A DNA stretch of 64,000 bases from Chlamydiota bacterium (GCA_021772435.1 JAJFLZ010000048.1:15449-79448), one strand, 5' to 3'. Positions 5,248 to 53,206 are shown, numbered from the stretch's first letter. Notes: generated by a model not told the origin, from the sequence alone. Translations and numbers: made by a program.

Positions 5248-5250
5248 AGT

Positions 5251-7371: not shown

Positions 7372-7374
7372 TTT

Positions 7375-8457
7375 TCATTGCTCCAAAATTTCGGTGTATT
7401 CTTTTTCTCGATCTTCGAGGGCTCCCACCCATTTCATTACCTCTGCTACCGCTGTATAGACCTCGTCGTCTTGCGGGATAAAATTGCCTTGCTTTCCCTG
7501 ATTCCACAATGTCTGCGCTAGCAGCGGATTGCGGAAAATCGGAATATCGTAGTTGACGGCAATTTTTATCATGTTCTCTGCCGCTACGCCTTTACCCATC
7601 GTCAAGATTTTCGGCGCGGGCATATCTTCTGGGTCGTACTCAAGCGCCACAGCGATGTGGGTTGGGTTTGTAACCACAGCCTTGGCTCGCATCGTTGCTT
7701 GTGGACCTTCCTGGTAGGCGACCTCTCTGGCGATTTCCTTGCGCTTGCCCTTGATATGGGGGTCACCCTCAGTATCCTTCATCTCTTGTTTAACCTCAAA
7801 TTTTTCCATTTTCATTTCTTTTGAAAACTGTTTTTTTTGAAAAATGAGGTCGAAAATAGCAATGCTAATAAAAAATATTCCGACACGAATTAAAACTTTA
7901 ATTAAAAAATCGTTGAAGACACCCAAAGTGACCGTTATTGGCAGGCCGGCTGTTGCGATGATGTCAGATAAGCTGGTTTTCATCACAGAATAAATCAAAA
8001 TACAAGCGATCGCAATTTTCAATACTGATTTTAAAAGTTCAAATAACGTCTTGAGTTTGAACTTATTTTTAATTCCATCGACGGGATTTAAACGTTTAAA
8101 ATCAAATTTCATCGCTTGCATGGAAAACATGGGGCCGATGATCAAAAAGTTGACTAGCACGCCAACGGAGACGACAATAACTAAAAGCGGAAGGGTCGTG
8201 CTCATGATCATCTCGATGGCATAGGTCATATAACCGGCTGCCTGCTGTCTTAAATCGACTTTTGCTGGGATTGAGCGAAACATTGCAATCATGTAGCTGC
8301 CCAATTGCTCAAAGAAAAAATGAGCCATGATCAGCGTCGTTGCAATCGATACGATAAACGTAAACGCTGAAGGAAAATCTTGTGATTTAGCGACCTGCCC
8401 CTTTTTTCTTGCATCACGCAATTTTTTCGGGGTGGCCTGTTCGGTTTTTTCTGCCAT
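7375..8457 (-). CDS. sctU: T3SS autoprotease/substrate switch SctU (CdsU/YscU)
   Basis: 360 aa. N-terminus MAEKTEQATPKKLRDARKKGQVAKSQD, four TM segments and the NPTH autocleavage motif (VVTNPTHIAVAL). Confidence 0.95.
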   Translation of the reverse strand: MAEKTEQATPKKLRDARKKGQVAKSQDFPSAFTFIVSIATTLIMAHFFFEQLGSYMIAMFRSIPAKVDLRQQAAGYMTYAIEMIMSTTLPLLVIVVSVGVLVNFLIIGPMFSMQAMKFDFKRLNPVDGIKNKFKLKTLFELLKSVLKIAIACILIYSVMKTSLSDIIATAGLPITVTLGVFNDFLIKVLIRVGIFFISIAIFDLIFQKKQFSKEMKMEKFEVKQEMKDTEGDPHIKGKRKEIAREVAYQEGPQATMRAKAVVTNPTHIAVALEYDPEDMPAPKILTMGKGVAAENMIKIAVNYDIPIFRNPLLAQTLWNQGKQGNFIPQDDEVYTAVAEVMKWVGALEDREKEYTEILEQ

Positions 8458-18707: not shown

Positions 18708-19950
18708 CGAGATCCAAAGAAATATCAGCTTTGGCTGCTATCTCATTCGGGTCTGTTTTTAATAATTTTCGCGGAGTATCAAATTCTGCAGAAATTAAGC
18801 TATCAACAGCTAGTTTGCTGATGTTCCCGCTTGCGACAAGAGGCTGGTCGAGCTCTGGATTCTCAGCCAAGGCCATTTGCTGTCTTTCAATGCGAGATGC
18901 TTTTTGATACTCAGACATTTTTTGAACTTCTAGCTCTTTTTCAAGCAGGTTGCCAATCAGGCGTGTGTTCATGCCTTTTTTTCCAAGAACGGTTGGGTAA
19001 TCTTCGTCGCTAACGACAATAGAGATGACGCCTTCGTCTTCATCGACGTGAATTTTTTTTATCTCCACAGGGTCGATTGCACGCTGCAAAAGGGCAACGG
19101 GATCTTCGATGTAGGGAATGATATCAATTTTTTCATTGCCTAGCTCGCGGATGATGTTTTTGACACGCGTTCCACGTACTCCGACGCAGCTGCCGACGGG
19201 GTCAACTTTAATGCTGTTAGAGCTAACGGCCATTTTTGTGCGGTAGCCAGCTTCTCTAACGATTTTGTTGATCTCGATTGTTCCATCGCCAAGCTCTGGG
19301 ACTTCTTGGATAAATAATTCTTTAACAAATTCAGGGTGAGAGCGTGTTAATACGACCTCAGCGCCACCGATATCTGTATCCCTCACTTCTAACATTAAGG
19401 CTGTAACGCGTTCACCGACGTGGTGCTTTTCCGTTTTAGGGTAAAAACGGCCAGGTAAAATCGCTTCAACTTTACCGAGATCGATGACAAGCGTTGCACC
19501 CTTACCAATGCGCTTAATACCACCAGAGACGATATCGCCCACTCTGTGGCGATATTCTTCGTAAATGACATCTCGCTCAGCTGAGCGCAGGCGTTGAGTG
19601 ATGACTTGACGAGCGACCCCTGCTGCGACTCTTCCAAAGTCAGAAGGTGTGATGACAATCTGCAGAACTTGACCCACTTCGACATCGGGATTTAGCTCTT
19701 TGGCGTCTGCAAGAGAAATCTGTTCATCAGCGTTATCTGTTTCGCCGTCGATAACTTCTTTTTCAGACAGCACTTCAATATCGCCATTTTTAGGATCGAT
19801 TGTAACGGAGATGTTGGCTCCTGCATCGCTAACGCTTTTACGCGCAGCGATTAAAAGGGCTTCTTCGATGGCTTTGGCTACAAGCTCTCGTTTGATTCCT
19901 TTCTCACGTTCTAGATATTCGAAAATGGCAACTAAATCTTTGCTATCCAT
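18652..19950 (-). CDS. nusA: transcription termination/antitermination factor NusA
   Basis: 432 aa with S1 and KH domain architecture. It occupies the conserved position between rpsA and infB. Confidence 0.95.
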
Positions 19951-21677
19951 CAGGCGTCTTCTTCTTTCTTTTTGTTTTTAGTGTTTTTTCCAACAACGAT
20001 ATCATCTTCTGCTGCTTGAGAAGCTGCTGTTCCGCTGCGGACTGAAAGGGAAATTTTCTTGTGCTCCGGATCAACCTCGATCACTTTTGCATCGACAGTA
20101 TCGCCAACAGCGATCACATCTTCGACCTTGTTGAACGGTTTGTCTGATAGCTCCGTGACGTGAATTAAACCTTCCATGCCGTTTTCAAGTTCAACAAAAG
20201 CTCCAAAGGCTGTTGTTTTTGTTACAACGGCCTTCACTTGCGTGCCAATAGCAAAGATGGATTCGATGTTTTCCCAAGGATTGTCATCCATTTGTTTAAC
20301 ACCTAGAGTGATCTTTTTGCTTTCTTGGTCTACAGATAAGACAACAGCTTCGACAGTGTCGCCCTTGTTAAAGACCTCTGAAGGGTGTGAAACTTTCTTA
20401 GTCCAGCTAATGTCAGAGATGTGAACGAGGCCATCGATACCAGGCTCTAGTTCAACAAATGCTCCGTAATTAGTTAAACTGCGCACTTCTGCTTTGACAA
20501 CGTGCCCAATGGGGTATTTGTTATCGACATCTTCCCATGGGTTTTTTTCCATTTGTTTGATGCCGAGGGAAATTTTCCCTTCTTCTTTTTGTATGGAAAG
20601 AACGATCGCTTCCACTTCGTCGCCTTTTTGCACGACTTCGCTTGGATCAGTGACATTTTTCACCCACGACATTTCTGAAACGTGAATGAGGCCTTCGATA
20701 CCGTCTTCAATTTCGATGAATGCACCGTAAGGCACTAGGCTGACAATTTTTCCTTTAACATGTGTGCCGGTAGGGAACCTGCTTTCGATCTCTTCCCATG
20801 GATTGTTCTCTTTTTGCTTAAGACCAAGCGCAACGCGACCTTTTTCTTTGTCGACGTGGAGGATCATCACCTCGAGCTCATCGCCGATTGATACCATTTC
20901 AGATGGATGCTTGATGCGTTTCCATGTCATATCGGTAATATGAAGAAGACCATCGATACCATCTAGATCTAGGAACACGCCAAAATCAGTGACGTTTTTG
21001 ACAGCGCCGATACGTAAATCGCCTTCTTGAATTGTTTCTAGAAGTTCAGCTTTTTTGCTGATGCGCTCTTTTTCGAGCAGCTCGCGTCTTGAAACGACGA
21101 TGTTTTTACGTTCTTCGTTGATTTTTAGGATGACGAAATCGTATTCGTGGTCTACAAATTCATCGATGTTTTTGATGCGTTTGTTGTCGATTTGCGAGCC
21201 TGGCAAGAATGCTTCCATGCCGATATCGACCATCAGGCCGCCTTTAACCTTGCGAGTAACTCTGCCGCGAACGATCGAGCCTTCTTTGCAATGCGTTAAG
21301 ATGTATTCCCACTGGCGCAGACGACGTGCTTTTTCTCTCGATAGCACGATTTGGCCGTCGTTACCTTCAGCTTCATCCAAATAAACTTCAACTTTTTCAC
21401 CAAGAACGATTTCTGCCGGATCGAATTCTGCTGCCGGAATGAGTCCTTCGGACTTTAGACCAACGTCGACAACGACAAAGTCTTTGGTGACTTCGACGAT
21501 TTCGCCGGTAAAAATTTCGCCTGGGGTCATCATCGCAGCGCCCTCGCCAGCCTCATCGGCTTTGGATGGTTCACCCATTAGTTTACGGAACAGCTCAGCA
21601 TCTTTTTCGTCGAATTCGACGTCGTCGATAACTTTGCTCTCGTTCCAGTTGTAAGTTGTTGTTTGGTTGTTTGACAT
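19950..21677 (-). CDS. rpsA: 30S ribosomal protein S1
   Basis: 575 aa with six repeated S1 domains (recurrent G.V...T.FGAFV.L..G..GL.H.S patterns). Confidence 0.95.
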
Positions 21678-22755: not shown

Positions 22756-22810
22756 CATTTAAAATTTAACTATTTATATCTTGCTCTTTCAATTTTTGAA
22801 AGAGGTGAAA

Positions 22811-23770
22811 ATGGCAATATTAACTCCACAAGTGAAACAACATATTACTCATGAAGTTAATGTAGAGTCACAACGTCAATTAACAATAAATGGTCTAAAA
22901 TGTCTATTAGAGCAAAGGCGGGATGGCTCAACTTTTCAGCCTTGTGATTTTAGAGACTCTATGGCTTGGAAACGTCAGCCAACAGAATCAACGTTTTACG
23001 AACTTCCTGAAATGAAGCTTGTTGAAGAGTTGTTTTCGCAATTTTGTGAGAAGATAGAAGTAGATCCAGGGATAGATACTTCTACCATACCCGAAAATTG
23101 CTCTATTCCGCCTAAAATTCATGCTATTTGGCTTGGCTCTCCGATTGGTGAATCAGAAAAATTATGCGTGGATTCTTGGAAGAAATATCATCCTGGTTGG
23201 GAAATTAAAATTTGGACGGATAAAGATGTGAAAAACTTTCCATGGTCTTGTAAAAGATCTAAACAGATTTTTGAAAATGCTGAGACTCTGGCTGAAAAAG
23301 CAGATATCTTACGCTATGAGATTCTTCTTGAAGGGGGTATTTATACTGATACTGATGTCGTATGCACGGGAGCTTTTCATCAACTTGTTTCAAACGGGCT
23401 TTCATTTTTTGGTGGATTTGAAATGAACTATACCACGGACAATCATCCTAGTCCTGTTTACATTGGCTCAGCGATTATGGGAGCAGAAAAGAATAGTTCT
23501 GTCATGAAATACGCTATTAAAAATTTTCAAACTTCTTCAGAATCAAGTGTTAGTCTGCCGATGCGTGGTGGTCCGGGATTAATTGGTCAGGCTTGCCAAG
23601 ATGAGCTTCAATCAAAAGATGATCCGGCTATTTTGCTTTTACCGTGCACCTATTTTTATGCTTACGCCTATCATCGTTCGAAAGAAACCAAAGAGGTAAA
23701 AGTGATTCAAGAACATCAATCTCCAGAATCTTTGGCAATACATCTTTGGAAAGCTTCATGGATGAAATAG
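22811..23770 (+). CDS. GT32-family glycosyltransferase with DXD motif
   Basis: IPPKIHAIWLG...ADILRYEILLEGGIYTDTDV is the classic Gly_transf_sug/DXD signature. The ATG at 22811 follows GAGGTG. Confidence 0.8.
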   Translation: MAILTPQVKQHITHEVNVESQRQLTINGLKCLLEQRRDGSTFQPCDFRDSMAWKRQPTESTFYELPEMKLVEELFSQFCEKIEVDPGIDTSTIPENCSIPPKIHAIWLGSPIGESEKLCVDSWKKYHPGWEIKIWTDKDVKNFPWSCKRSKQIFENAETLAEKADILRYEILLEGGIYTDTDVVCTGAFHQLVSNGLSFFGGFEMNYTTDNHPSPVYIGSAIMGAEKNSSVMKYAIKNFQTSSESSVSLPMRGGPGLIGQACQDELQSKDDPAILLLPCTYFYAYAYHRSKETKEVKVIQEHQSPESLAIHLWKASWMK

Positions 23771-28505: not shown

Positions 28506-29884
28506 AAAAAGTCCTTATTGCCAATCGCGGCGAAATAGCCGTTCGTATCATCCGCGCCTGTCACGACCTAGGGTTGCAAACCGTTGCTGTTTACTCCAAA
28601 GCAGACAGCGAAGCGCTTCACGTCTTGCATGCCGATGAGGCGATTTGTATTGGTGATGGGCCAGCTATCAACTCATACCTGCGTATTCCTAACATCCTTT
28701 CAGCTTGTGAAATCACTGGTGCAGATGCTATCCACCCAGGCTACGGATTTTTGAGTGAAAATGCGCACTTTGCCTCTATTTGCGAGAGCTGCGGCTTAAC
28801 GTTTATTGGTCCCTCATCGCAGGCAATTGCCATGCTTGGTAACAAAGCAAAAGCTAAACAGACGGCTAAAAAAGCTAAATGTCAGACTATTCCAGGGACT
28901 GAGGGTATCGTATCCACTTTTGAAGAAGGACTCAAAGAAGCCAAAAAAATTGGCTATCCGGTCTTCATCAAAGCCTCTGCCGGTGGTGGAGGTAAAGGGA
29001 TACGCGTAGCTTTTGATGAAGACGATTTCAAGCGCAAATTCACAGCTGCTAGAACAGAAGCTGAAGCCTCATTCAACAACCCAGACGTCTACTTAGAAAA
29101 AATGATTGTCAATCCGCGCCATGTCGAGGTTCAAGTTGTTGGAGACAAGCACGGCAACTACATCTATCTCGGTGAGCGCGACTGCACGATGCAGCGCAGA
29201 AGGCAAAAACTCATCGAAGAAACACCTAGTCCTGTTGTCACAAGCTCGATGCGTAAAAAAATGGGTGAGGCTGCTGTTCGCATCCTAGAAGCGTCCAAAT
29301 ACTCCTCTGCAGGAACAGTTGAATTCTTACTCGATGAAGATAAACATTTTTACTTCATGGAAGCTAACACACGCATCCAAGTTGAGCATACGATTACAGA
29401 AGAGCTCACAGGCATTGACTTGGTTAAACTGCAAATTAAAATTGCGATGGGTGAAAAATTATCCATCAAGCAAAAAGAAGTGCACTATCAAGGTCATGTC
29501 ATTCAATTTAGGATTAATGCTGAAAATCCAAGACAGAACTTCATGCCATCTCCTGGTAGATTAGAATACTTTATTCCGCCTTGTGGTCCAGATGTACGCG
29601 TAGATACAGCATGCTACTCTGGCTACTCCATACCGCCCTACTACGATTCCATGATCGCTAAACTCATCGTGCGCGGAAAAACCAGGAACGAGGCGATTGC
29701 AAATGCTAAAAGTGCCCTAAAAACATTTCACATAGGGCCCATTCACACCACCATTCCATTTCACCTATTTATGCTTGAGCATAAGCCATTTGTGGAAGGA
29801 GTGGACTACACGATAGGATACGTCGACGAGATGCTTGAAAACGGCTGCAGTTTTGAGCTAGAACCCGTCGGATCTCTTACGTGA
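28502..29884 (+). CDS. accC: biotin carboxylase AccC
   Basis: KVLIANRGEIAVRIIRAC, GGGGKGIR and EMNTRIQVEH-like (EANTRIQVEHT) motifs. Confidence 0.95.
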   Translation: MKKVLIANRGEIAVRIIRACHDLGLQTVAVYSKADSEALHVLHADEAICIGDGPAINSYLRIPNILSACEITGADAIHPGYGFLSENAHFASICESCGLTFIGPSSQAIAMLGNKAKAKQTAKKAKCQTIPGTEGIVSTFEEGLKEAKKIGYPVFIKASAGGGGKGIRVAFDEDDFKRKFTAARTEAEASFNNPDVYLEKMIVNPRHVEVQVVGDKHGNYIYLGERDCTMQRRRQKLIEETPSPVVTSSMRKKMGEAAVRILEASKYSSAGTVEFLLDEDKHFYFMEANTRIQVEHTITEELTGIDLVKLQIKIAMGEKLSIKQKEVHYQGHVIQFRINAENPRQNFMPSPGRLEYFIPPCGPDVRVDTACYSGYSIPPYYDSMIAKLIVRGKTRNEAIANAKSALKTFHIGPIHTTIPFHLFMLEHKPFVEGVDYTIGYVDEMLENGCSFELEPVGSLT

Positions 29885-30765
29885 AAGGTATTATATTAGC
29901 AGGGGGCACTGGCTCGCGGCTTTTTCCTGTTACCTTTGCAACATGCAAACAGCTGCTTCCTATCTACGATAAGCCCATGATCTACTTTCCTCTAGCTGTG
30001 CTCATGCAAGCGTACATTCGCGAAATTCTCATTATCTGCCTACCCAAAGATATCCCGCGTTTTCAAGATTTGCTAGCTGATGGATCGCACCTTGGTCTCA
30101 ATATCACCTATGCAGCCCAGCCAGAAGCTAACGGCATCGCAGAATCTTTTATTATCGCTGAAAACTTTATCGGAAGCGATCCGGTAGCTCTTGTTCTCGG
30201 TGACAACCTATTTTATGGCCATAACATCGAAGAAATCTTAGCGCCGTGTCAAAAACATACTGACGGTGCAATCGTATTTGGCTATCACGTGCAAGATCCC
30301 GAGCGTTACGGTGTTGTGGCTTTCGATGAGAAGCGCAACGTCACAAACATCGTCGAAAAGCCGCTCAAAGCGCCCTCATCCTACGCGGTTACAGGCTTAT
30401 ACTTTTATGATGCAAACGTAGTAGATATTGCCAAACAGCTCAAACCCTCACCACGTGGAGAGCTAGAAATTACCGATGTCAACAAAGTCTACCTAGCGCA
30501 AAACAAACTCAAAGTGATCTTACTTGAAAAAGGCTTTGCTTGGCTTGATAGTGGGACACATGCTGCTCTTAGCCAAGCTTCAACCTACGTACAAACCATT
30601 CAAGAGCGTCAAGGCATCCAAATTGCCTGCGTTGAAGAAATTGCCTACAAACAAGGTTTTATCGATCATTCAAAACTACAAGCACTCGCTGGATTGCATG
30701 CCTCAAGCGCTTATGGTGCCTATCTGCAAAGCATAGCAACACCATGCAACCCAGTTCTAAACTAG
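29881..30765 (+). CDS. rfbA: glucose-1-phosphate thymidylyltransferase
   Basis: KGIILAGGTGSRLFPVT...KQLLPIYDKPMIYFPL. GTG start overlapping the accC stop (GTGA). Confidence 0.9.
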   Translation: MKGIILAGGTGSRLFPVTFATCKQLLPIYDKPMIYFPLAVLMQAYIREILIICLPKDIPRFQDLLADGSHLGLNITYAAQPEANGIAESFIIAENFIGSDPVALVLGDNLFYGHNIEEILAPCQKHTDGAIVFGYHVQDPERYGVVAFDEKRNVTNIVEKPLKAPSSYAVTGLYFYDANVVDIAKQLKPSPRGELEITDVNKVYLAQNKLKVILLEKGFAWLDSGTHAALSQASTYVQTIQERQGIQIACVEEIAYKQGFIDHSKLQALAGLHASSAYGAYLQSIATPCNPVLN

Positions 30766-30875
30766 TCCTTGCACTAAATTTACAAAAACTTTACGCTCTA
30801 GACCGTTAAAGTTGACTCACACAGCAATTTTCCTTGAATTGGAATACATCGTATTACATAACATTGGGGAATGTG

Positions 30876-31661
30876 ATGATAAAGTGGGTTATTTTAATCT
30901 TAACGACCATATCTTTGCGCGCTGATCACATCGATCGGTATCTAACATTTTTAAAAAGCTACTACTTGGGTCCGTCAGGATCCTCTCTGGATGGAGAAAT
31001 TCAAATTATACTTGATCCAAAAGAAATTACTGCTATTGAGCAGACTGTCAAAGTAAGCCTTAGAGAAAAGGGGCATTCAGAAGCAGAAGCAAGCGAATTC
31101 AGTCAAGTGGGTATTATTGCTGAAGATCAATACTGGATCTGGGTGCGTGATGCTGTCATTTTTCCTAGTGGCCACAGAGGAACATATAATCGCATGCTAT
31201 GGAAATCTCATCTAGATGGTCCACCAGCATGTGCTGTCATTCCCATCTTTGCAGATGGGCGCATTGGTGTCATTGTGACCTACCGTCATGCTACGCGCAG
31301 CTGGCAACTGCAACTACCTGCGGGCTTACGCAGCCCGGGTGAATCGCCTGAAATAGCAGCTAGACGCGAACTAAAAGAAGAAACGGGTTGCGATCCCAAA
31401 TCACTTGAATACATTGGTACCTTAGCTCCCGACAGCGGCGTGTCAGCAAGCTTAGTTCCCGTTTATCTTGGACGTATCGAACAAACAACACTATCCCTAC
31501 CAGACAAGTCAGAAGCGATCGAAAAAATGATTCTACTGACTGCTAAAGAGTTAAAAGATGCAATCACAATAGGCGAGCTCGATGTGACTATACGCGGCAA
31601 AAACCACAAAATCCCCTGTAACGACCCAGCCTTAGCGTATGCTCTGCAACATCTTCCTTGA
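30876..31661 (+). CDS. Nudix hydrolase with N-terminal signal/anchor
   Basis: Nudix box GLRSPGESPEIAARRELKEETG. N-terminus MIKWVILILTTISLRA. The track ORF starts at a TTG at 30834. Confidence 0.8.
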   Translation: MIKWVILILTTISLRADHIDRYLTFLKSYYLGPSGSSLDGEIQIILDPKEITAIEQTVKVSLREKGHSEAEASEFSQVGIIAEDQYWIWVRDAVIFPSGHRGTYNRMLWKSHLDGPPACAVIPIFADGRIGVIVTYRHATRSWQLQLPAGLRSPGESPEIAARRELKEETGCDPKSLEYIGTLAPDSGVSASLVPVYLGRIEQTTLSLPDKSEAIEKMILLTAKELKDAITIGELDVTIRGKNHKIPCNDPALAYALQHLP

Positions 31662-31723
31662 AATTTTATGCATCTCTAGTGTAGCCTGGCCGTGTTTGCA
31701 TAAATCTTTACACAGGGTGTTAG

Positions 31724-32479
31724 ATGAAAAAAATATTGTTTATTCTAGGAATGCTAGCTTTTACACATTCAGTATTTTCAGAAAATCTCTACTTAATCTC
31801 ATTTCCCAGGTCAGGGTCATCATGGATGATGTACATCATTCAGTATCTCACACGGCAACCCTGGGATGTAGGAGTTAATAAGCCACAAATTTTTCCACCA
31901 CTAAAAAAAGAGGTAGACACAGGCTTGCCTTTGCATTACAGATCACATTCATCGTCGGGTTTACAGGTGTTGAGGAACACTAAACGGCCATACAAACCTC
32001 ATAAGGAAGGAGATAAGCTGATTTTAATGCTTAGAAACTACCGAGAATGCACGTTACGTCACTTTAGCTATGACAAAACCAAGGTTCACAACCAATTGCA
32101 TGCTAATAATAAATCACCCTCTAACTATTTCAACTTAATTAGCACATACGAGCTCTGGAATCCTGAAAATCGATTGCTAGTATATTACGAAGATTTGATG
32201 AAAAATCCCAAACAAGAAATCATGCGTGTTTCGAAATTTATTGGATCAGATACTGATAGAACAGAGAACTTTTTAAGTCATTTAAAACAACACGCTGACG
32301 CTTCCTTTGCTCAAAAAAGAACACCAACAGATTCAAAAGGTAAAGATTTAAATTTTCACTCAAAAAAAATTAGCCCTAATGATTTGAAGAAAATGGACAC
32401 AGTGGTAAGAGCAAACTATCCAGAGTATTGGGATAAATATTTAAATCGCTACTCTGTTGAAAATACGATGAAAAATTAA
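31724..32479 (+). CDS. sulfotransferase-fold protein with signal peptide (canonical 5'-PSB loop)
   Basis: MKKILFILGMLAFTHSVFS followed by SFPRSGSSW (PAPS 5'-phosphosulfate-binding loop), LMLRNYRECTL and LLVYYEDLMKNP. Confidence 0.8.
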   Translation: MKKILFILGMLAFTHSVFSENLYLISFPRSGSSWMMYIIQYLTRQPWDVGVNKPQIFPPLKKEVDTGLPLHYRSHSSSGLQVLRNTKRPYKPHKEGDKLILMLRNYRECTLRHFSYDKTKVHNQLHANNKSPSNYFNLISTYELWNPENRLLVYYEDLMKNPKQEIMRVSKFIGSDTDRTENFLSHLKQHADASFAQKRTPTDSKGKDLNFHSKKISPNDLKKMDTVVRANYPEYWDKYLNRYSVENTMKN

Positions 32480-33354
32480 CTTTTGAACCGTTCAAAATAT
32501 TTCCAGAGATGGGGGTATTTTTTAGCAAAGAGCTGATCAATTGTCTGTAGTGATTCAGTCGAAACGTTTTTCGTATAAAAAACTGTTTGCCCTTTAGACT
32601 TCGTATTGGCAAAACCTTTAATGACTTTATTCGTTTTGTACAAATGAAGGCAATTTGCTTTGTGCGTATCTAAATCTTGCATATAATCATGGACTGATTG
32701 TGAATCCTCGCCTAGCCAAGCTAACATCGATTCAAACGTTTCTTGTGGTCTAACCAATAAGTCTTCGTAGTAAACTAATAAACGATTTTCAGGAGACCAA
32801 GACTCATATAAATTTAAGTTATTAACTAAGTTTTGCAAAAAAACATTTCTTTTAGGCTTGCTTAAGATCTCAATCAATTGATTCGGAGAAATTCTTAGCG
32901 AGCTAAAGCATTCTTTAAAATTTCGTAAAACAATTAAAAGCTTGTCATTTTCTTTATTCAGAGGAAGCTTAGCATTGTTGAATCTTTCGATAGAATGTGC
33001 AAAGTAGATACGGTCCTTTGTCTGATCAATACCTGCATTATAGTGATAAAATCTATGCCAGTCTCGAATCGGGATATGTTTCTCAGGACCGTAAAAATTG
33101 CAGTCACCTATTTCCCGCTTTGTCATAGTATGGAGGCTGTATAGTGACCACATAGAGCCTGAATGTTGGACGGTTAAGATGTATGTTTCAGCACGTAAAG
33201 AAGTAAAAACACAAAATGTAACACATAGGATCCAAAGAAAAATCTTCATAGCAAAGCTCCTGATTAAGGGAGGAAGATAATGGATGATTTTCAAATAGTC
33301 AAGTGAAAGATTCCTAACGGTTATGCAACCGCTTATGAACAAAAATAAGATCAC
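32476..33354 (-). CDS. sulfotransferase-like paralog with signal peptide (variant PSB loop QHSGSMW)
   Basis: The likely start is the ATG at 33249, after AGGAGC (MKIFLWILCVTFCVFTSLRA). Motifs: LTVQHSGSMW, IVLRNFKECF, LLVYYEDLLVRP. Its stop shares TTAA with the convergent gene 31724..32479. Confidence 0.7.
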   Translation of the reverse strand: MILFLFISGCITVRNLSLDYLKIIHYLPPLIRSFAMKIFLWILCVTFCVFTSLRAETYILTVQHSGSMWSLYSLHTMTKREIGDCNFYGPEKHIPIRDWHRFYHYNAGIDQTKDRIYFAHSIERFNNAKLPLNKENDKLLIVLRNFKECFSSLRISPNQLIEILSKPKRNVFLQNLVNNLNLYESWSPENRLLVYYEDLLVRPQETFESMLAWLGEDSQSVHDYMQDLDTHKANCLHLYKTNKVIKGFANTKSKGQTVFYTKNVSTESLQTIDQLFAKKYPHLWKYFERFKS

Positions 33355-34003
33355 TCTTTAGTTTTTTCACGCACGTAAACCCGTGCTTAGACAGCAGGTT
33401 ATTAATACGTTTGTCTTCATAATTATCTTCCACAGAAATGACATCAATTGTGATTTCAGAAAAATCAATACTCTTTAAAATATCTAATTCACCACCTTCG
33501 GTATCCAGGCTTAGAAAATCTATATGTGAAATACCCTGTTCTGCCAATGTGTCATTCAATAGAAAGCATTTGACTCTGAGCAATTCTTTTGAATCGTCAT
33601 TTGTCGTAAATTCATATCCAATTCTTTTTCGATGCTCTTTGCTGTAATTTTGGACAATCCCTGACAACATCTCCCCATAGCCTTTGATGTGTAAAAAATC
33701 GCGCGTGCCTTTTTTATTACTGACACAGCCTTGAATGCATGAGCATGTACGGTTTAGAGTCAGCTTTTCAAATACCGAAGGAATGGGTTCAAAACAGATT
33801 CCGGTCCAATTAAGCTCCTTTTCGAAAAAATAGGTGTTGCTAAGATGAACGCCGTCGTAAGCACCGATATCTACAAAAGTGCCTTCTTTTTTATCAGGAA
33901 AGTATCTTTGATGAACAAATTTATCTTGTCCGTACTGACTATAATAAGTTGCGAAGCAACACAGATTACAAAGAAAAATGGCCAATATCAAAAGTCTTTT
34001 CAT
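33314..34003 (-). CDS. FkbM-family SAM-dependent methyltransferase with signal peptide
   Basis: MKRLLILAIFLCNLCCFA followed by FVDIGAYDGVHLSNTYFFEKELNWTGICFEPIPSVFEKLTLNR. Confidence 0.75.
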   Translation of the reverse strand: MKRLLILAIFLCNLCCFATYYSQYGQDKFVHQRYFPDKKEGTFVDIGAYDGVHLSNTYFFEKELNWTGICFEPIPSVFEKLTLNRTCSCIQGCVSNKKGTRDFLHIKGYGEMLSGIVQNYSKEHRKRIGYEFTTNDDSKELLRVKCFLLNDTLAEQGISHIDFLSLDTEGGELDILKSIDFSEITIDVISVEDNYEDKRINNLLSKHGFTCVKKLKSDLIFVHKRLHNR

Positions 34004-34135
34004 AATCTTACTCTTTTATGTGCTGAAAATTATCATAACCACTTGATTAAACCCAAGTAAATTCAAAATATGGTTTTTAGATACCTCAGCTCTCGTACAA
34101 ATTTTTGCACTTCACTTCGGGTCTTCTTATTGTGC

Positions 34136-34993
34136 TTATTTGACAAATTTCGCGATCCGTTTTGGGTTCCACGAACCAGCCCACAGGTGAGCTGAATGCG
34201 TTTCAGGCTTTAAATAGGGTCGAATAGCCTTGATATTGTTATCATGGTCCCATATTTGATCCCGTAGATTGCAATGCAATGGATAAAAGTATGCACAGGG
34301 GTAAATAACTGTGCGGTCTTGAGCATGTACAATATAATCACTTATCATATGAGTAATGAAAGAAGGGCCTGTTGTTCTTTGAACTGTATGAAGATTAAAA
34401 TTGCGTAATTTAGAGAGTTGTTGCAGGCAGCGAGATAAGATAGGATGTTTGGGAGAACTTCCAATTAAAGCATTACCGATCACTCCATTTTCCATTCCAG
34501 CATAAAAATCATTGGCGTAATGAAAACAATCATGAGGTTTTAAACAAATAAAATCTGTATCAACGTATAAACCACCGAATCGATTTAAGATCTCTAATCT
34601 AAAAATATCTGATTTTTGACCTAAGTTAGTAGCTTTGTGAATTAGCTCCTTTGTGACCAGCGGAAAAGATCCAATATCTTGATCAGACCATAAGCGATAT
34701 TCCCAATCTGGATGTTGTTTTCTCCATGAGAGTGTTAAGTTTTTAAAAACAGCTGGGATTGGTTTTCCAAGCCAAATTTGATGGATAATTTTAGGAATAC
34801 GCACTGTATCTCTTTCAATGTTTTCGTAACGATAATGTTCATAAGCTTGTTCAAAATAAGTGTTTTTGGCTCCTTTAAGCGTACACCGCGCGCATTGGTT
34901 AAATGGAGGGTACGCTTGAGCTGAAGAGCCGCAAAACGACAAAAGCAGCCATGTGAACTTTAAGTGCTTTTTGAACAGATTAATTATCATCAA
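34136..34993 (-). CDS. GT32-family DXD glycosyltransferase with signal peptide
   Basis: WLLLSFCGSSAQA, then IPKIIHQIWLGKPIP and SDIFRLEILNRFGGLYVDTDF. Confidence 0.8.
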   Translation of the reverse strand: MMIINLFKKHLKFTWLLLSFCGSSAQAYPPFNQCARCTLKGAKNTYFEQAYEHYRYENIERDTVRIPKIIHQIWLGKPIPAVFKNLTLSWRKQHPDWEYRLWSDQDIGSFPLVTKELIHKATNLGQKSDIFRLEILNRFGGLYVDTDFICLKPHDCFHYANDFYAGMENGVIGNALIGSSPKHPILSRCLQQLSKLRNFNLHTVQRTTGPSFITHMISDYIVHAQDRTVIYPCAYFYPLHCNLRDQIWDHDNNIKAIRPYLKPETHSAHLWAGSWNPKRIAKFVK

Positions 34994-34995
34994 AT

Positions 34996-35811
34996 TTATG
35001 ATTCAAACCGTTCAAAATACTTCCATAATTGAGGGAAGCGCGATTTAAACAGGTAGTCCATTTTTTTTAAAGTATTTAAATCAACGGGTTTAGTATGGGA
35101 AATGGGGTCCCCCTTTGACTTTGTGTTACCCATGCCTTTGCTAAATCTCTCTTTATAAAGATTAAAGCACGTAGATTTATGTTTATTGTAATCTTTCATA
35201 AAGCTTGTAACGACCTCTGGACGTTCATGCAACCAATTCGAAATTTTTTCAAATTCAACGCTAGGATTAGTCATTAAATCTTCATAATAAATCAAGAGTC
35301 GATTATCTGGGTTCCAGCTGTCATATAACTTTAAATTGGTAACTAAATTACTCAAAAAAATGTCTAAATTTTTTGCCGACAACATATCAATTACAGCTTG
35401 AGGGCTTCTCTTAAGCGAAAGAAAGCATTCTTTAAAATTCCGAAGCACAATTAGCAATTTATCTGTATGATGTCTCAGAGGAAGGTTTGCTAAGGTAAAA
35501 CGATTGGAAGAATGAGAAAAATAAATGGGTGGTTTTTCGGAATTAATCGTGCTTTGATAATTAAAAAATTTGTGCCAATCACGTATCAGTTTTCGGGGTT
35601 CTGCGCGATTTGGATTACAATCGCAAATGCGCTGCTGTGTCATTGTGTGTAAGCTATACAGAGTCCACATTGACCCAGAGTGTTGAACAGTCAACATGTA
35701 TGTATGTGGCGGGGGTTGACCCCACAACGCAGCTAGATTTACAATAAATAAAACGAGTAAATATTTCATGAGCACTCCTAAATTGCGTACCGCGTCAGAT
35801 ACTTTTTCCAA
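34996..35811 (-). CDS. sulfotransferase-like paralog with signal peptide (variant PSB loop QHSGSMW)
   Basis: The likely start is the ATG at 35769, after AGGAG (MKYLLVLFIVNLAALWG). Motifs: LTVQHSGSMW, IVLRNFKECF, LLIYYEDLMTNP. It is a close paralog of 32476..33249. Confidence 0.7.
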   Translation of the reverse strand: MEKVSDAVRNLGVLMKYLLVLFIVNLAALWGQPPPHTYMLTVQHSGSMWTLYSLHTMTQQRICDCNPNRAEPRKLIRDWHKFFNYQSTINSEKPPIYFSHSSNRFTLANLPLRHHTDKLLIVLRNFKECFLSLKRSPQAVIDMLSAKNLDIFLSNLVTNLKLYDSWNPDNRLLIYYEDLMTNPSVEFEKISNWLHERPEVVTSFMKDYNKHKSTCFNLYKERFSKGMGNTKSKGDPISHTKPVDLNTLKKMDYLFKSRFPQLWKYFERFES

Positions 35812-36572
35812 AGGCCGGGATGGAAAGTTTGCATGGTCTTATCTAAATGGGATAGGTCCTTTTTGGAATACTTTTGAGAGTGGTAATATTCATTTGATCC
35901 TTGTGACATAGACCCACCAAATCTGCCTTGCCTTTTATTGTAGAGTTGAATGGAAAGCTTTTTGTAACGCTGGAAATTGTCCATTACATGTTGGACATCT
36001 TTTTGCGCATCTCCTAAAAACTGGCCTAAATCATGTAAAACAGTTGTTGGATCTTTGATTAGATCCTCATAATAAACTAGGTGACGGTTTGATGGTTCCC
36101 AGGCGTCATATTGTTTTAATATATCAAAATAAATGCTTCTGTAGGATTGATCATTAAAACGTGATAAATGAACTTTTTCCACGTTAATGGTTTTTTTGTG
36201 AGCTTTTGCTTCTCGTATGAAGCATTCTTTGTAGTCACGAATGATCACAATTAGTTTGTTGCAATCTGATGGAGCGCCATCTATCCAGTGAGGGTTATGC
36301 ATCACAAAGCAGGGAGTGTTCTTGTCGTCAATCGCTAAGTTTAACGGGTTTTCTAGACCGAATGTTCCACAGAGAGGGTAAATGGGGCGTTTACCAATAA
36401 TTTGTATTAAGCATTTCAGCCAATTCTGGCCGCTTCTTGGAAATGAAGCAAGAAAAACGACATTTGATGCACATTCTGGATGATGACTGATCATGACTGC
36501 TTCAGGATTTATATGGGGGGGCGTTGAATATAGAGCATTAAATAATAAAGCAAAAACGATCAGATATTTCAT
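35778..36572 (-). CDS. sulfotransferase-fold protein with signal peptide (canonical 5'-PSB loop)
   Basis: MKYLIVFALLFNALYS, SFPRSGQNW, VIIRDYKECF and LVYYEDLIKDP. Confidence 0.8.
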   Translation of the reverse strand: MKYLIVFALLFNALYSTPPHINPEAVMISHHPECASNVVFLASFPRSGQNWLKCLIQIIGKRPIYPLCGTFGLENPLNLAIDDKNTPCFVMHNPHWIDGAPSDCNKLIVIIRDYKECFIREAKAHKKTINVEKVHLSRFNDQSYRSIYFDILKQYDAWEPSNRHLVYYEDLIKDPTTVLHDLGQFLGDAQKDVQHVMDNFQRYKKLSIQLYNKRQGRFGGSMSQGSNEYYHSQKYSKKDLSHLDKTMQTFHPGLWKKYLTRYAI

Positions 36573-36624: not shown

Positions 36625-37542
36625 TTATTTTGAAGAAAAAAGGCTTTTTTTGCGGCGTTTTTTTTGGGTGGAAGGTTTTTTGCCGCGCGATCTGCTGTAG
36701 ACAACTTCGTGCAAGTTTTCAACAGCCATGAAGGCATTGGTGTCTTCTCGCAAGACGATCTCTTTGAGTTCGGCCAGATCAAGGCGCTCCACAATCACGC
36801 GTAAGATTTCTTGAGCTTCACCTGAATAACCGCCCCGACCATACATGACCGTCAGACCCAGTCCCATCTCGTCGGTAATGATTTTCGTCAATTTTTTTGG
36901 AATCGTAGTGATAATCGTCACAGATTTGAGCTCGTCGAGGCCTACAATGACAAGGTCCATCATTTTGAAAGCAACGATGTAGGTTAAAAGTGAGTCCAGA
37001 GCAATTTCCCAATCGAGAAAAATCAAACCGTAGGCTGCGAAAATAAAGATATTAATGAATAAAACGACTTGACCGACAGTAAATCCAAGCTTTCTGTTCA
37101 TGATAATGGCTAAAATTTCGGTGCCATCTAAACATCCACCATGACGTATAATCAAGCCAGCTCCAATCCCCAAAATACCACCGCCGATCACAATCACTTC
37201 AAATGAACCACTTTTAAAAGGAGGAGCCCATTGCAGAGCAAAAAGGAAAATGGCAAAGAGGACAACAGCTGAGAGCATGTAGAAGACGAAATTTTTTCGG
37301 ATAAAGCGGTAGGCCAGATAAACAAAGGGCAAGTTGAGGACAAGCAAGGCTATCGACATGATTTTATCACCAAAAAGGCGTGATAGAATCAGAGATATAC
37401 CGATGATACCACCGTCGATTAGGTCATTGGGGTAGAGGAAAACGCGGATGGAAATAGCAGCTAGAAAAGCACCTATGGCTATCCATAAAAAAGATAGAGC
37501 AAGTTGTCCTGGGGACTTTGAAGTGATTTGAGGCATTCCCAT
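36625..37542 (-). CDS. YitT-family membrane protein (DUF2179 C-terminal domain)
   Basis: Five to six TM segments, with the pattern FLYPNDLIDGGIIGISLIL and a soluble C-domain. Confidence 0.7.
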   Translation of the reverse strand: MGMPQITSKSPGQLALSFLWIAIGAFLAAISIRVFLYPNDLIDGGIIGISLILSRLFGDKIMSIALLVLNLPFVYLAYRFIRKNFVFYMLSAVVLFAIFLFALQWAPPFKSGSFEVIVIGGGILGIGAGLIIRHGGCLDGTEILAIIMNRKLGFTVGQVVLFINIFIFAAYGLIFLDWEIALDSLLTYIVAFKMMDLVIVGLDELKSVTIITTIPKKLTKIITDEMGLGLTVMYGRGGYSGEAQEILRVIVERLDLAELKEIVLREDTNAFMAVENLHEVVYSRSRGKKPSTQKKRRKKSLFSSK

Positions 37543-37586: not shown

Positions 37587-37663
37587 TGGCGCGGGAGACG
37601 AGACTCGAACTCGCAACTTCCAGCGTGACAGGCTGGTGCTCTAACCAGTTGAACTACTCCCGC
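37587..37663 (-). tRNA. tRNA-Asp (GTC), CCA encoded
   Basis: I folded it by hand. The acceptor stem is GCGGGAG/CTCCCGC, the anticodon loop is CTGTCAC, the T-loop is GTTCGAGTC, and the 3' end is GCCA. Confidence 0.9.
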
Positions 37664-37674
37664 AACTGGATTTT

Positions 37675-37747
37675 TGGGCGCAAAAGGACTCGAACCTATG
37701 ACCGCCTGTGTGTAAGACAGGAGCTCTACCAACTGAGCTATACGCCC
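37675..37747 (-). tRNA. tRNA-Val (TAC)
   Basis: Acceptor GGGCGTA/TGCGCCC, D-arm GCTCAGTTGGTAGAGC, anticodon loop CTTACAC and T-loop GGTTCGAGTCC. No CCA is encoded. Confidence 0.9.
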
Positions 37748-49402: not shown

Positions 49403-50050
49403 ATGAGGTTATTTTTTTTATTATTGGTGTTGCCGATTGTTGGCTTTTGCAATATCGAGAAAGACGATATTCTGAAAGAATTTTCTTTAAATATGAAGGA
49501 GGCCGATATTGATGGAGCCTTCCAGTCTATTGATCAATGGAAGGAATTGTATCCTGATGATATTCATATGGCAGAAGTTTGTAGAGCATTTTTGTTACTG
49601 CTGGATGAAAAACTCGATCAGGCAAGGTTTTTATTTGAGGCTCATCTCCCTGAGATTCCTACTCAAGATGGACAGCTTGCTTCACAAAGCCAAATAGCAG
49701 GCCTTTTTTATCGAATCCTACAGATGTATGAAAACCCTTTAACTTTAGAGGCTTTAAACTCTGAAGCTAGAGTGGTTTTATGTAAAAAACGTTCACGGTT
49801 TTGGAAGGGTAAGGCGATTCTGGGAATGGTGACGATGGCGGCTGGTGCGGTTGTTGCAGTTGTAAATCCTCCTCTTGGGTGGGGAATGATAATTTCATCA
49901 ATACCCATGGTAGCAGAAGGAATAGAAAATTCAGAAGACTATCATGAAGAGATAGAGAGAAGAAAGTCTGAAAATAGGCGGACAGAAGCTGAATTGGATC
50001 GCACATCATATTTTTATGAACCCAGGAACAATGGACTAATAATGGTTTGA
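49403..50050 (+). CDS. hypothetical membrane protein with N-terminal signal and a bilobed hydrophobic domain
   Basis: MRLFFLLLVLPIVGFC, then AILGMVTMAAGAVVAVVNPPLGWGMIISSIPMVAEGI (two hydrophobic lobes split by NPP). Confidence 0.55.
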   Translation: MRLFFLLLVLPIVGFCNIEKDDILKEFSLNMKEADIDGAFQSIDQWKELYPDDIHMAEVCRAFLLLLDEKLDQARFLFEAHLPEIPTQDGQLASQSQIAGLFYRILQMYENPLTLEALNSEARVVLCKKRSRFWKGKAILGMVTMAAGAVVAVVNPPLGWGMIISSIPMVAEGIENSEDYHEEIERRKSENRRTEAELDRTSYFYEPRNNGLIMV

Positions 50051-50768: not shown

Positions 50769-51386
50769 ATGGCACGTAAAAAAAGAGTGGATCCTATGTT
50801 TAAAAAGTACTTTGGTATTGAAACCCCTATCGTTTACTTAGAAGATGTCAAAGTGCAGAGCAAAATAGAGGAGCGCTTTAACCGATCATGGAAACGGTTC
50901 TACAAAAAGGCCGATCCGATCATTTCCGATTTTCGAGGGGAGCGGCTCGAGGCTTTTTTTAGACAGCTCGAAAGAGATGGCTCTGACGAACGGTACAACA
51001 GACGGGTGAGCATCCGCTTTATCAACCCAGTCGTGGGCTATGGCGTTTTCGCTAAAGAAGATATCCCCCCCTACTCCACCTTGGCGCAGTATACGGGCCT
51101 TCTCATGCTCGATGAGGAGATCGACCCCGACCACGATAGCACCTTCTCCTTTTCTGACTATAAAACCTACTCAATCGATGCGGCAAACCATGGAAATTGG
51201 GCCCGCTTCATGAACCATTGCGGAGAGGGGGAAGCAAAAAATAATGCGATCCCTTGGGAATTCTATACCGAAAAAGGTCCTCGCGTTGTTTTCACCTCAG
51301 GAGCTCATGGAATTAAGAAAGGGAAACAGATCCTTTATTCTTATGGAGATGAGTACTGGACCGAGAAAAAATGTGTGAAGTTCTAA
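50769..51386 (+). CDS. SET-domain protein lysine methyltransferase (eukaryote-like)
   Basis: GYGVFAKEDI, ARFMNHC (the NH(S/C)C motif) and LYSYGDEYW (the ELxYDY-like post-core). Confidence 0.85.
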   Translation: MARKKRVDPMFKKYFGIETPIVYLEDVKVQSKIEERFNRSWKRFYKKADPIISDFRGERLEAFFRQLERDGSDERYNRRVSIRFINPVVGYGVFAKEDIPPYSTLAQYTGLLMLDEEIDPDHDSTFSFSDYKTYSIDAANHGNWARFMNHCGEGEAKNNAIPWEFYTEKGPRVVFTSGAHGIKKGKQILYSYGDEYWTEKKCVKF

Positions 51387-52102: not shown

Positions 52103-53206
52103 ATGAAACGGTTACTCCTTTATAGGACTGTTGAAAAAGTCCATTTCCACATCTTTCGCGCACTTTCCGGAAAAAATCGCAAAATCTGGGGAAAGCGACT
52201 TTCTCAACAATCCCTTTATCTCATCGTCGTAGCATCTTGTTTTTCAGGATGTAAAGGGAAGCAAACGGTTGTCAAGGTGACCCCCTTTTCGCATGAAATT
52301 CCCGCAGCCTCTCCTCGCATAAGCTATCCCTTTATGGGGCTTATCGATGAGGAGTATCAGCTTGAGTGGACCCTTTTAAAGAATCTCCCTAAAAAAAGAA
52401 AATACTTCAAGCGGCTTAGCTTTTTTGTTAAGAATCTGAAAACCAAAAAGATTGTTCTTAATAACCTTGCTCCTCCCTACTCAAAAGCAAAGCTCAGACA
52501 GATCCCCAAAGAGAAGCTCGTCCTGATTTTGTGGGAGCCTCCTTCTGTCTTTCTCCATCAGTATCAAGAGGATGTTCTCGACCTTTTTGGGACGGTTCTC
52601 ACCTGGAATGATGACATGGTCGATGGGAAAAAATTCATTAAATTCAATTATCCCAGCCTTCGCCCCATCCAGGAAAATCTTCCTTCCTTCAAAGAGCGTA
52701 AGTTTCTCTGTATGATTGCGACCAACTTGAAGTTCAATGATTTTGAAAAAGAGCTCTACTCAATGAGGCGCAAGGCGGTGGAGTTTTTTGAGTCGAAGCC
52801 AGAAGGAACCTTTGATCTTTATGGAAAGGGATGGGAAGCTTTTAAAAACGCAAAGGGAAGAGTTCCAGATAAGCTAGAAACTCTTAAGGATTATAAGTTT
52901 AACTTCTGCTTTGAGAATACCCACGTTCCCGGCTACATCACAGAAAAGATTTTCGATAGTTTTGCTGTGGGGGCGATTCCGATTTATCTGGGGGCGACGA
53001 ATATCGAGGAGTCTATCCCTCCAGAATGTTTCATCGATTATCGTCAGTTTAATGGTTTTGACGAGATGCTTGAGTTTCTTGAAGCTCTTTCTGAGGAAGA
53101 TTATAATAGCTACCTTACTCATATCAAAGCTTTTGTAGAGGGACCAAAGAGTGCTCCCTTTACCCGGAAAGCTTTTTGCGAAACGCTTTCTCAAACCTTG
53201 AATTAA
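52103..53206 (+). CDS. GT10-family alpha-1,3/4-fucosyltransferase-like protein
   Basis: FNFCFENTHVPGYITEKIFDSFAVGAIPIYLG matches the FucT alpha-1,3 motif (F.L.FENS...DY.TEK). The N-terminal hydrophobic segment LYLIVVASCFSGC could be a lipobox or signal anchor. Confidence 0.8.
   Translation: MKRLLLYRTVEKVHFHIFRALSGKNRKIWGKRLSQQSLYLIVVASCFSGCKGKQTVVKVTPFSHEIPAASPRISYPFMGLIDEEYQLEWTLLKNLPKKRKYFKRLSFFVKNLKTKKIVLNNLAPPYSKAKLRQIPKEKLVLILWEPPSVFLHQYQEDVLDLFGTVLTWNDDMVDGKKFIKFNYPSLRPIQENLPSFKERKFLCMIATNLKFNDFEKELYSMRRKAVEFFESKPEGTFDLYGKGWEAFKNAKGRVPDKLETLKDYKFNFCFENTHVPGYITEKIFDSFAVGAIPIYLGATNIEESIPPECFIDYRQFNGFDEMLEFLEALSEEDYNSYLTHIKAFVEGPKSAPFTRKAFCETLSQTLN

Follow-up and report, generated by a model that had tools for sequence, protein, structure and literature searches.

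The window examined here is a 64-kb stretch of DNA (64,000 nucleotides, the whole of the sequence analysed) from a Chlamydiota bacterium (GCA_021772435.1, JAJFLZ010000048.1:15449-79448). Between rfbA and yitT it carries a cassette of six genes at 31724-36572, which encode four sulfotransferases (named ST1-ST4), an S-adenosylmethionine (SAM)-dependent methyltransferase and a glycosyltransferase, and whose products all begin with a segment resembling an export signal. ST1 (31724..32479, + strand) encodes a SULT-fold sulfotransferase (PF00685, 48.6 bits) with the signal-peptide-like N-terminus MKKILFILGMLAFTHSVFS. Its paralogue ST2 (32476..33249, - strand) is convergent with it, and the two stop codons overlap in the sequence TTAA at 32476-32479. 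ST2 has a variant loop, QHSGSMW, for binding 3'-phosphoadenosine 5'-phosphosulfate (PAPS); it falls slightly under the gathering score of Sulfotransfer_1 (PF00685; 20.4 bits versus 22), yet aligns with the family over its full length (257 aa, representative P0125). There follow, all on the - strand, the FkbM-family SAM methyltransferase (33314..34003; PF05050, 71.5 bits with a cut-off of 22.7 bits; TIGR01444, 50.2 bits with a cut-off of 37.7 bits), whose N-terminus is the signal-peptide-like MKRLLILAIFLCNLCCFA; a GT32 glycosyltransferase of the GT-A fold with a DXD motif (34136..34990; PF04488, 51.9 bits), whose signal-peptide-like N-terminus ends in AQA; ST3 (34996..35769; PF00685, 23.4 bits), which alignment and tree place as the sister paralogue of ST2 and which has the same QHSGSMW loop; and ST4 (35778..36572; PF00685, 40.1 bits), a sulfotransferase of a third subclade. 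The probable starts of ST2, ST3 and the GT32 gene are internal ATG codons at 33249, 35769 and 34990, respectively. The initial annotation of this region had given the same open reading frame (ORF) coordinates, and its enzyme families were recovered by a Pfam profile search (NUDIX, four Sulfotransfer_1 with ST2 just below threshold, FkbM and GT32). Both gene overlaps that it had described, the one between the ST1 and ST2 stops and the one between the accC stop and the rfbA start (GTGA at 29881-29884), are present. A promoter and terminator scan of 29.8-38 kb gave counts no higher than in shuffled sequence.

The cassette occupies a fixed position in an otherwise conserved chromosomal segment. 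The gene order pyrH-orf482-rpe-cofD-HAD-efp-accB-accC-rfbA-Nudix-(slot)-yitT is common to the window and to two relatives, L004 (ENA ERZ25074695) and L029 (NCBI GCA_024233455.1, 'Chlamydiales bacterium'), with backbone proteins 80-98% and 68-93% identical to those of the window, respectively. The left flank is rfbA, encoding glucose-1-phosphate thymidylyltransferase (29881..30765, +; TIGR01207, 425 bits; 91% and 85% identical in L004 and L029), which has no signal segment, and the right flank is a yitT-family membrane protein gene (36625..37542, -; PF02588, 176.7 bits; 98% and 88%). What lies between them differs from genome to genome. The window has ST1, ST2, FkbM, GT32, ST3 and ST4; L004 has ST1', an ST4-like gene, a GT47 exostosin-family enzyme, FkbM and ST4'; and L029 has only a GT47 and a GT32 enzyme and no sulfotransferase. 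The cassette orthologues are only 46-72% identical (ST1 46%, FkbM 72% and ST4 70% in L004; GT32 53% in L029), and the GC content of the cassettes is 0.36-0.40 across the three syntenic genomes, compared with 0.44-0.46 for the backbone. In the window itself the values are 0.361 over 31724-36572 and 0.439 in the backbone, which agrees with the AT-richness first noted for the island (0.36 versus 0.44 in the flanks).

The gene between rfbA and the cassette (30876..31661, +) encodes a predicted exported Nudix hydrolase of the ADP-ribose/ADP-sugar pyrophosphatase type (PF00293, 51.5 bits). Its Nudix box G-x5-E-x7-REUxEExGU is intact (GLRSPGESPEIAARRELKEETGC), and its closest solved proteins are of the NudF/ADPRase type (4e-13). 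Signal-bearing orthologues with 40-48% identity occur on four metagenome contigs (L046, L048, L049 and L050) without an adjacent cassette, which rules the Nudix hydrolase out as an island gene. Since this Nudix subfamily recurs without a cassette, rfbA and the Nudix gene count as conserved neighbours, and only 31724-36572 makes up the true island, a cassette of changing content whose place ahead of yitT is constant. Thus, of the island initially drawn at 29881-36572, the part from 31724 onwards is indeed variable, but rfbA and the Nudix gene belong to the conserved backbone (the latter is 84% and 72% identical in L004 and L029, and its GC content is at the backbone level). A mobile genomic island was also considered, given the low GC and variable content, and was rejected: no integrase and no att-like direct repeats were found flanking the cassette, the repeat search returning only the paralogy of the sulfotransferase genes, and the tRNAs (tRNA-Asp and tRNA-Val, 37587..37747, -; ARAGORN and Rfam) stand directly past yitT and not at the cassette border. 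About 4 kb past its cassette, L004 also has two tandem genes of the carbohydrate-sulfotransferase family Sulfotransfer_2 (19201-20667) with signal-like N-termini and no counterpart in the window.

ST1-ST4 are intact members of the PAPS-type SULT-fold sulfotransferases, as judged by their motifs and a predicted fold. The motif (L/H)L(V/I)YYEDL is common to all four in the alignment. The PAPS loop reads PRSGxxW in ST1 and ST4, and the QHSGSMW variant of ST2 and ST3 is also found in cluster P0138. Across 47 aligned sequences R104, the Arg of the 3'-phosphate-binding motif, and E108 are invariant, and the catalytic His (H75) and G31 are at least 90% conserved. The AlphaFold model of ST1 has a pLDDT of 92.8, and all of its top 50 Foldseek matches are PAP(S)-binding sulfotransferases. 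Its nearest solved proteins are the cytosolic SULTs, namely SULT1C3 by sequence (1e-12) and SULT2B1 and SULT7A1 by structure (template modelling (TM) scores of 0.57-0.59), with bacterial StaL and CurM ranking after them. No heparan sulfate, chondroitin sulfate or HNK-1 carbohydrate sulfotransferase of the Golgi appears among the 44 PDB sequence matches or the top 50 fold matches.

The second common property of the cassette proteins is their N-terminus. All seven proteins from the Nudix hydrolase to ST4 start with 1-3 basic residues, followed by 9-19 uncharged hydrophobic residues and then by a cleavage-type site with small residues at -3 and -1. Signal segments were called with a home-made heuristic rule (a basic n-region, an h-region of 7-15 residues, and small residues at -3 and -1). 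The seven proteins and their orthologues pass this rule, but so do rfbA, cofD and the 482-aa protein, cytoplasmic Rossmann proteins in which it picks up stretches of 7-10 residues. Since this first rule was too permissive, weight was placed mainly on homologues that lack the signal and on the finding that the segment precedes the fold. Among the ~43 other ORFs of the window, the same hydrophobicity score is reached only by two orphans and a multi-pass SSF transporter, plus a strand of adenylate kinase that is a false positive; because so few other ORFs score alike, a run of seven signal-like N-termini is far beyond chance. In the AlphaFold model of ST1, a helix at residues 2-16 precedes the fold, whose catalytic strand, beta-1, sets in near residue 22. 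Because beta-1 begins so soon after the 9-19-residue stretch, ST1 has no stem region.

The segment is carried by every cassette protein in the window, L004 and L029, the second ST4-like gene of L004 having it only from an internal start (MRSLSLFLFIISTTLMA), so that the heuristic rule missed it at the called start. It is also present in 113-119 of the ~150 top representatives of the sulfotransferase family. Basic residues before the stretch, together with its length of 9-19 residues, argue for an N-in/C-out orientation or for cleavage, contrary to what is expected of an anchor facing the cytoplasm; the segments look like short cleavable signal peptides and not like type II anchors. Of the 'signal or anchor' segments in the initial annotation, then, the segments themselves stand, in all seven proteins and in their relatives, and they resemble the former more than the latter. 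Cysteine patterns, a possible mark of periplasmic disulfides, showed no consistent difference between signal-bearing and signal-less sulfotransferases.

Across the family, the segment behaves as an add-on whose presence follows lifestyle. An exhaustive profile search with hidden Markov models returned 2860 clusters at E<1e-3, of which 430 remain at E<1e-30, so that the family, though unnamed, is large. A word-indexed search was too insensitive for so divergent a family (three relatives from ST1 alone, 45 from the 47-sequence profile). In the genome collection searched, which comprised representative bacterial and archaeal genomes only, full-length relatives were found solely in metagenome-assembled genomes (MAGs) of Chlamydiota (including Candidatus Algichlamydia, Simkania and Simkaniaceae), in MAGs of Dependentiae/Babeliales and in two 'uncultured bacterium' MAGs (L010 and L014). 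All of them bear the N-terminal segment except one from Simkania (L018), which has none in the called ORF. In Xanthomonas, Acidocella, Roseovarius and one MAG of the Bacteroidales, weak and partial relatives begin at the PAPS loop (WLASYPKSGNTW). The same family is encoded on 12 IMG/VR viral contigs, where nine of the 12 proteins begin at or within ~15 residues of the PAPS loop and have no hydrophobic segment (for example MNYLLSYPRSGNSW). In the three viral contigs tested (L033, L039 and L044), the neighbouring genes encode NeuB, a CMP-sugar cytidylyltransferase, GDP-mannose dehydratase (Gmd), an epimerase, DegT aminotransferases and Sulfotransfer_2. A rough neighbour-joining tree (no support values, no eukaryotes, nine segment-less viral members) puts the proteobacterial sequences far outside and the viral, chlamydial and Dependentiae sequences in one clade, in which ST1, ST2/ST3 and ST4 fall into three different chlamydial subclades. 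The closest eukaryotic structures score ~50 bits, compared with >160 bits within the family. These are not the ordinary cytoplasmic sulfotransferases of capsule or lipopolysaccharide (LPS) loci, a grouping that would have spoken against the island as first conceived: the proteobacterial and Bacteroidales relatives are distant and begin directly at the PAPS-binding loop. A local tandem expansion of the family, with five members or fragments within 11 kb, occurs in contig_3 of Candidatus Algichlamydia australiensis (L007), a dinoflagellate-associated member of the Simkaniaceae.

In the glycosyltransferase of the cassette, the DxD motif (D145-T-D147) is invariant in 33 sequences, and the AlphaFold model (pLDDT 87.8) matches Legionella SetA, YeGT, PaToxG and fungal Och1 in Foldseek, with TM scores of 0.44-0.50 for the toxins and Och1 scoring about as well. 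The best sequence match is the SetA/YeGT/PaToxG group, at ~20% identity over ~200 residues. The parallel first drawn between this enzyme and those of the Golgi needs correction, in that the toxin and effector protein-glycosyltransferases SetA, YeGT and PaToxG are structurally as close to it as Och1. The word-indexed search gave 826 GT32 homologues; those with names are mostly Chlamydiales, Simkaniaceae, Parachlamydiales, Babeliaceae and Dependentiae, with one labelled Verrucomicrobia, and most of these have signal-like or anchor-like N-termini. The GT47 enzyme of L004 and L029 matches human EXT1/EXT2 and the chlorovirus A075L enzyme. No solved relative of the FkbM protein was detectable by sequence.

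Larger arrays of the same kind occur elsewhere. In L125 (1458-10888), from the same metagenome as L004, ten consecutive genes encode a GT32, four GT90, two methyltransferases (Methyltransf_23), one unknown protein, a Sulfotransfer_1 and a further GT32, and signal-like N-termini are present in all ten. L126 (3914-16591) has six GT2 and seven GT32 genes, of which 12 have signal-like N-termini, the exception being one GT32; in its GT2 enzymes the segment stands directly ahead of the first strand of the fold. A weak Wzx-like match (Polysacc_synt) lies beside this array at 18099-19415.

We tentatively favour a reading, to which we give somewhat less than an even chance, in which the six cassette enzymes are exported by the Sec pathway and act in the periplasm or the vacuole lumen on PAPS, SAM and nucleoside diphosphate (NDP)-sugars of the host, decorating a glycan. 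Its observed basis comprises the enzyme families and their intact motifs, conserved N-terminal segments, a slot that varies in content, and the taxonomic pattern. Because the segment is found in the Chlamydiota and Dependentiae members and is absent from the viral and distant proteobacterial relatives, it would be an add-on that serves as an export signal. From its form we infer a Sec signal, which would place the catalytic domains beyond the inner membrane; the short Sec-type signals would carry the enzymes across that membrane, and they would then work in the periplasm and/or in the lumen of the host-derived vacuole. With catalytic domains so placed, the activated donors PAPS, SAM and nucleotide sugars would have to be supplied by the host. 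The enzymes would put lineage-specific sulfate, methyl and hexose groups on a glycan. We favour one on the bacterium's own surface, since viral members occur in a glycan context, the partner enzymes point the same way, the cassette turns over like antigen loci, and L126 has a Wzx-like gene next to its array. The alternative acceptor would be glycans on the luminal side of the vacuole membrane. The Nudix hydrolase, although not specific to the cassette, probably hydrolyses ADP- or NDP-linked compounds in that compartment too, either to salvage material or to clear away by-products. SULT-fold enzymes can also catalyse PAP-mediated transfer from aryl sulfates (PAP being 3'-phosphoadenosine 5'-phosphate), and a variant of the scheme would need no free PAPS. 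Supply of donors by the host is plausible because of two precedents. The first is that C. trachomatis recruits host SLC35D2, which carries UDP-glucose to the lumen of the inclusion, where a secreted bacterial glycosyltransferase uses it (PMC4829429). The second is that, by means of NTT transporters, chlamydiae obtain ATP and further nucleotides from the host, which therefore reach the periplasm (PMC11317633). Action outside the cytoplasm, as initially suggested, is therefore still the best reading and has gained a precedent for its donor supply (PMC4829429), while export continues to be predicted from sequence.

Several points weigh against this reading. The export call is heuristic, and the rule behind it also flags the short Rossmann beta-1 strands of rfbA and cofD. 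We know of no PAPS- or NDP-sugar-dependent enzyme that works in the bacterial periplasm. The acceptor may not be a glycan, because the fold is nearest to small-molecule cytosolic SULTs, and by Foldseek the GT32 enzyme is as near to protein-glycosylating toxins as to Och1. The genome was covered over the 64-kb window, and cysDNC, PAPS synthesis or exporter genes and genes for type II secretion elsewhere are outside this scope. Both the host and the vacuolar lifestyle of this organism are assumed. Finally, the library of representatives carries no taxonomy, and some signal-bearing members could be eukaryotic.

Comparison with known systems shows partial likeness in each case. Eukaryotic cytosolic SULT1 and SULT2, the top sequence and structure matches, share the fold, the 5'-phosphosulfate-binding loop (PRSGxxW here, PKSGTTW there), the 3'-phosphate-binding RNxK(D/E) motif and the catalytic His; nevertheless, identity is ~15% and the TM scores are 0.55-0.59, the proteins here have a putative N-terminal export signal, and their context is one of glycan enzymes rather than of xenobiotic or steroid metabolism. 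Golgi type II glycan-modifying enzymes are alike in that the same families occur together (GT32 here; GT47, GT90 and Sulfotransfer_2 in the relatives) with an N-terminal hydrophobic targeting segment and a predicted non-cytoplasmic action on imported donors. They differ in that the sulfotransferases here are not homologous to the heparan and chondroitin enzymes, in that short signal-peptide-like stretches stand in place of long stem-and-anchor regions, and in that the carrier is a bacterium, for which no donor transporter was identified. For the sulfotransferases, consequently, the Golgi type II parallel of the initial annotation fails: their fold is nearest to the cytosolic SULTs, with no Golgi homologue and no stem region. 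In the inclusion glycogen synthesis of C. trachomatis (GlgA with SLC35D2), a bacterial NDP-sugar transferase likewise works in the vacuole lumen on a host nucleotide sugar (PMC4829429), but GlgA, which makes glycogen rather than a decorated glycan, is secreted by the type III system and lacks a signal peptide, and neither sulfation nor methylation is involved. SetA of Legionella and YeGT and PaToxG of Yersinia and Photorhabdus, the closest solved GT32 relatives, share the retaining GT-A fold and the DxD motif; they differ in that type IV secretion or toxin machinery takes them into the host cytosol and in that they possess additional targeting domains. The rhizobial Nod-factor genes are a generally known, strain-variable set with a similar combination of sulfate, methyl and fucosyl or hexosyl transfer (NodH/NoeE sulfotransferases, the NoeI FkbM-type methyltransferase and the NodZ fucosyltransferase), but those enzymes are cytoplasmic and without signal peptides, obtain their own PAPS via NodPQ and act on a lipochitooligosaccharide.

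The likeness to toxins raises an alternative, which we consider unlikely but the most serious of those weighed: the proteins could be secreted effectors, exported by Sec and then by type II secretion or vesicles, whose targets would be proteins, lipids or small molecules of the host, reached in either its cytosol or its secretory pathway. The GT32 enzyme would then be a protein glycosyltransferase like SetA or YeGT, which are, with PaToxG, its top sequence and structure matches, and the SULT-like enzymes would sulfonate host metabolites, in keeping with their nearness to cytosolic small-molecule SULTs. The toxin matches are moderate, however (TM 0.44-0.50), and Och1 equals them. A window rich in eukaryote-like candidates (a U-box protein, a SET domain, a GT10 and a second GT32), the presence of the same families in Dependentiae and the fast divergence, which suits host-interaction genes, all agree with effectors; against this, the viral family members sit inside glycan-biosynthesis clusters, such glycosyltransferases adjoin a Wzx-like gene in L126, and the way in which the proteins would get out of the vacuole lumen and into the host cytosol is hypothetical.

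Somewhat less probable still is an ordinary LPS or capsule modification locus, in which the segments would be anchors that keep the domains on the cytoplasmic side of the membrane, where the bacterium's own PAPS, SAM and NDP-sugars serve as donors. In its low GC and variable content the cassette resembles O-antigen loci, a weak Wzx-like match lies near the glycosyltransferase array of L126, and sets of FkbM, sulfotransferase and fucosyltransferase enzymes are generally known from cytoplasmic pathways such as rhizobial Nod-factor decoration. Although rfbA adjoins the cassette, it is part of the conserved backbone and is coupled to accC. Moreover, the slot that separates rfbA from yitT is free of initiating transferases, flippases, polymerases and ABC exporters in each of the three syntenic genomes. 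The segments themselves fit poorly with such anchors: the positive charges come before and not after the hydrophobic stretch, which at 9-19 residues is shorter than a typical membrane span; relatives known or expected to be cytoplasmic, viral and proteobacterial, have no segment; and even the GT2 enzymes of L126 carry one. That the genes came in recently as passengers, with a eukaryote, a virus or another symbiont as donor, and have little or no function, their N-termini being eukaryotic secretory relics, is very improbable in spite of the low GC, the patchy occurrence among close relatives, the presence of the family on viral contigs and in Dependentiae and a transposase fragment nearby, since all reading frames are intact with conserved catalytic motifs, orthologues are retained even where genome backbones are as much as 30% apart, >110 diverged clusters preserve the N-terminal segment, the closest eukaryotic structures reach ~50 bits against >160 bits within the family, and neither an integrase nor flanking repeats accompany the cassette.

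If the cassette enzymes are exported tailoring enzymes, as we favour, the consequences reach beyond this locus. The parts belong to known enzyme families, and what would be new is the predicted extracytoplasmic location of whole arrays. As far as we know, the bacterial enzymes that transfer glycosyl, sulfo or methyl groups from nucleotide-activated donors are cytoplasmic. Were whole sets exported in intracellular bacteria, PAPS, SAM and NDP-sugars would have to be available for use in the vacuole lumen or periplasm. Biosynthesis would then go on inside the pathogen vacuole itself, extending the single precedent of luminal glycogen in C. trachomatis (PMC4829429), and chlamydiae would gain concrete candidates for genes of glycan mimicry, be it at the surface or in the vacuole. 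A broader proposition, which is possible but which we regard as doubtful, is that Chlamydiota and Dependentiae are vacuole-dwelling bacteria with an extracytoplasmic, Golgi-like assembly and decoration of glycans, in which exported GT2, GT32, GT47 and GT90 enzymes, methyltransferases and PAPS-type sulfotransferases use host donors. If true, two unrelated phyla would have a way of making glycans for which no bacterial example is known. Across the sulfotransferase family, the contrast between signal-bearing members in vacuolar bacteria and signal-less members in viruses and distant Proteobacteria forms a clean and testable evolutionary signature. The chlamydia-dependent heparan-sulphate-like material is a long-debated and unresolved matter, according to work cited in PMC2229832; speculatively, the GT47 enzyme and the sulfotransferases of L004 could supply an enzyme set for it. 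A literature search returned nothing on chlamydial or Dependentiae sulfotransferases, on exported PAPS-dependent enzymes or on GT47 in Chlamydiae, just as the initial annotation had known of no chlamydial system of this kind.

The remainder of the window, the sequence of which was found in three Logan assemblies, contains several other genes of note. A second GT32/DXD enzyme (22781-23770, +; PF04488, 46.6 bits; GC 0.378) has no N-terminal hydrophobic segment and may be a cytosol-directed enzyme of the effector type, possibly delivered by type III secretion; it is a lineage-specific insertion, since it separates pyrH from the 482-aa gene, which in L004 and L029 adjoin with nothing between them. 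The window carries the type III secretion trio copN-sctV-sctU, which lies with MalQ (GH77) and a Schlafen/AlbA_2 plus HATPase_c_4 protein at 547-8457 (-); this trio, like the synteny with L029, assigns the window to the Chlamydiae. The GT10 fucosyltransferase (52103-53206, +) that the initial annotation had set beside the cassette enzymes has no N-terminal anchor segment. Nor does a signal segment precede the SET-domain protein at 50769-51386 (+), a eukaryote-like lysine methyltransferase. Between tRNA-Asp/Val and surE (38052-41532) are an orphan of 571 aa, a U-box protein resembling E3 ligases (40045-40539) and a fragment of a DDE transposase (41044-41532), where L004 and L029 have only a 118-aa ORF. 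SurE, the SSF transporter and a PP-loop protein past surE are 44-61% identical to their relatives, much below the left-hand backbone. Two orphans of no Pfam family, at 49403-50050 (+) and 57580-58620 (-), have clear signal-peptide-like N-termini (MRLFFLLLVLPIVGFC and MRKTLFVFLLACSCLAA, respectively, the latter possibly a lipoprotein). Finally, an open frame of >1250 aa at 60246-64000 (+) runs off the end of the window; with a signal peptide start, YD/Rhs-like repeats, a GC content of 0.50-0.52 and a strongly negative GC skew, it probably encodes a large exported Rhs-family protein.

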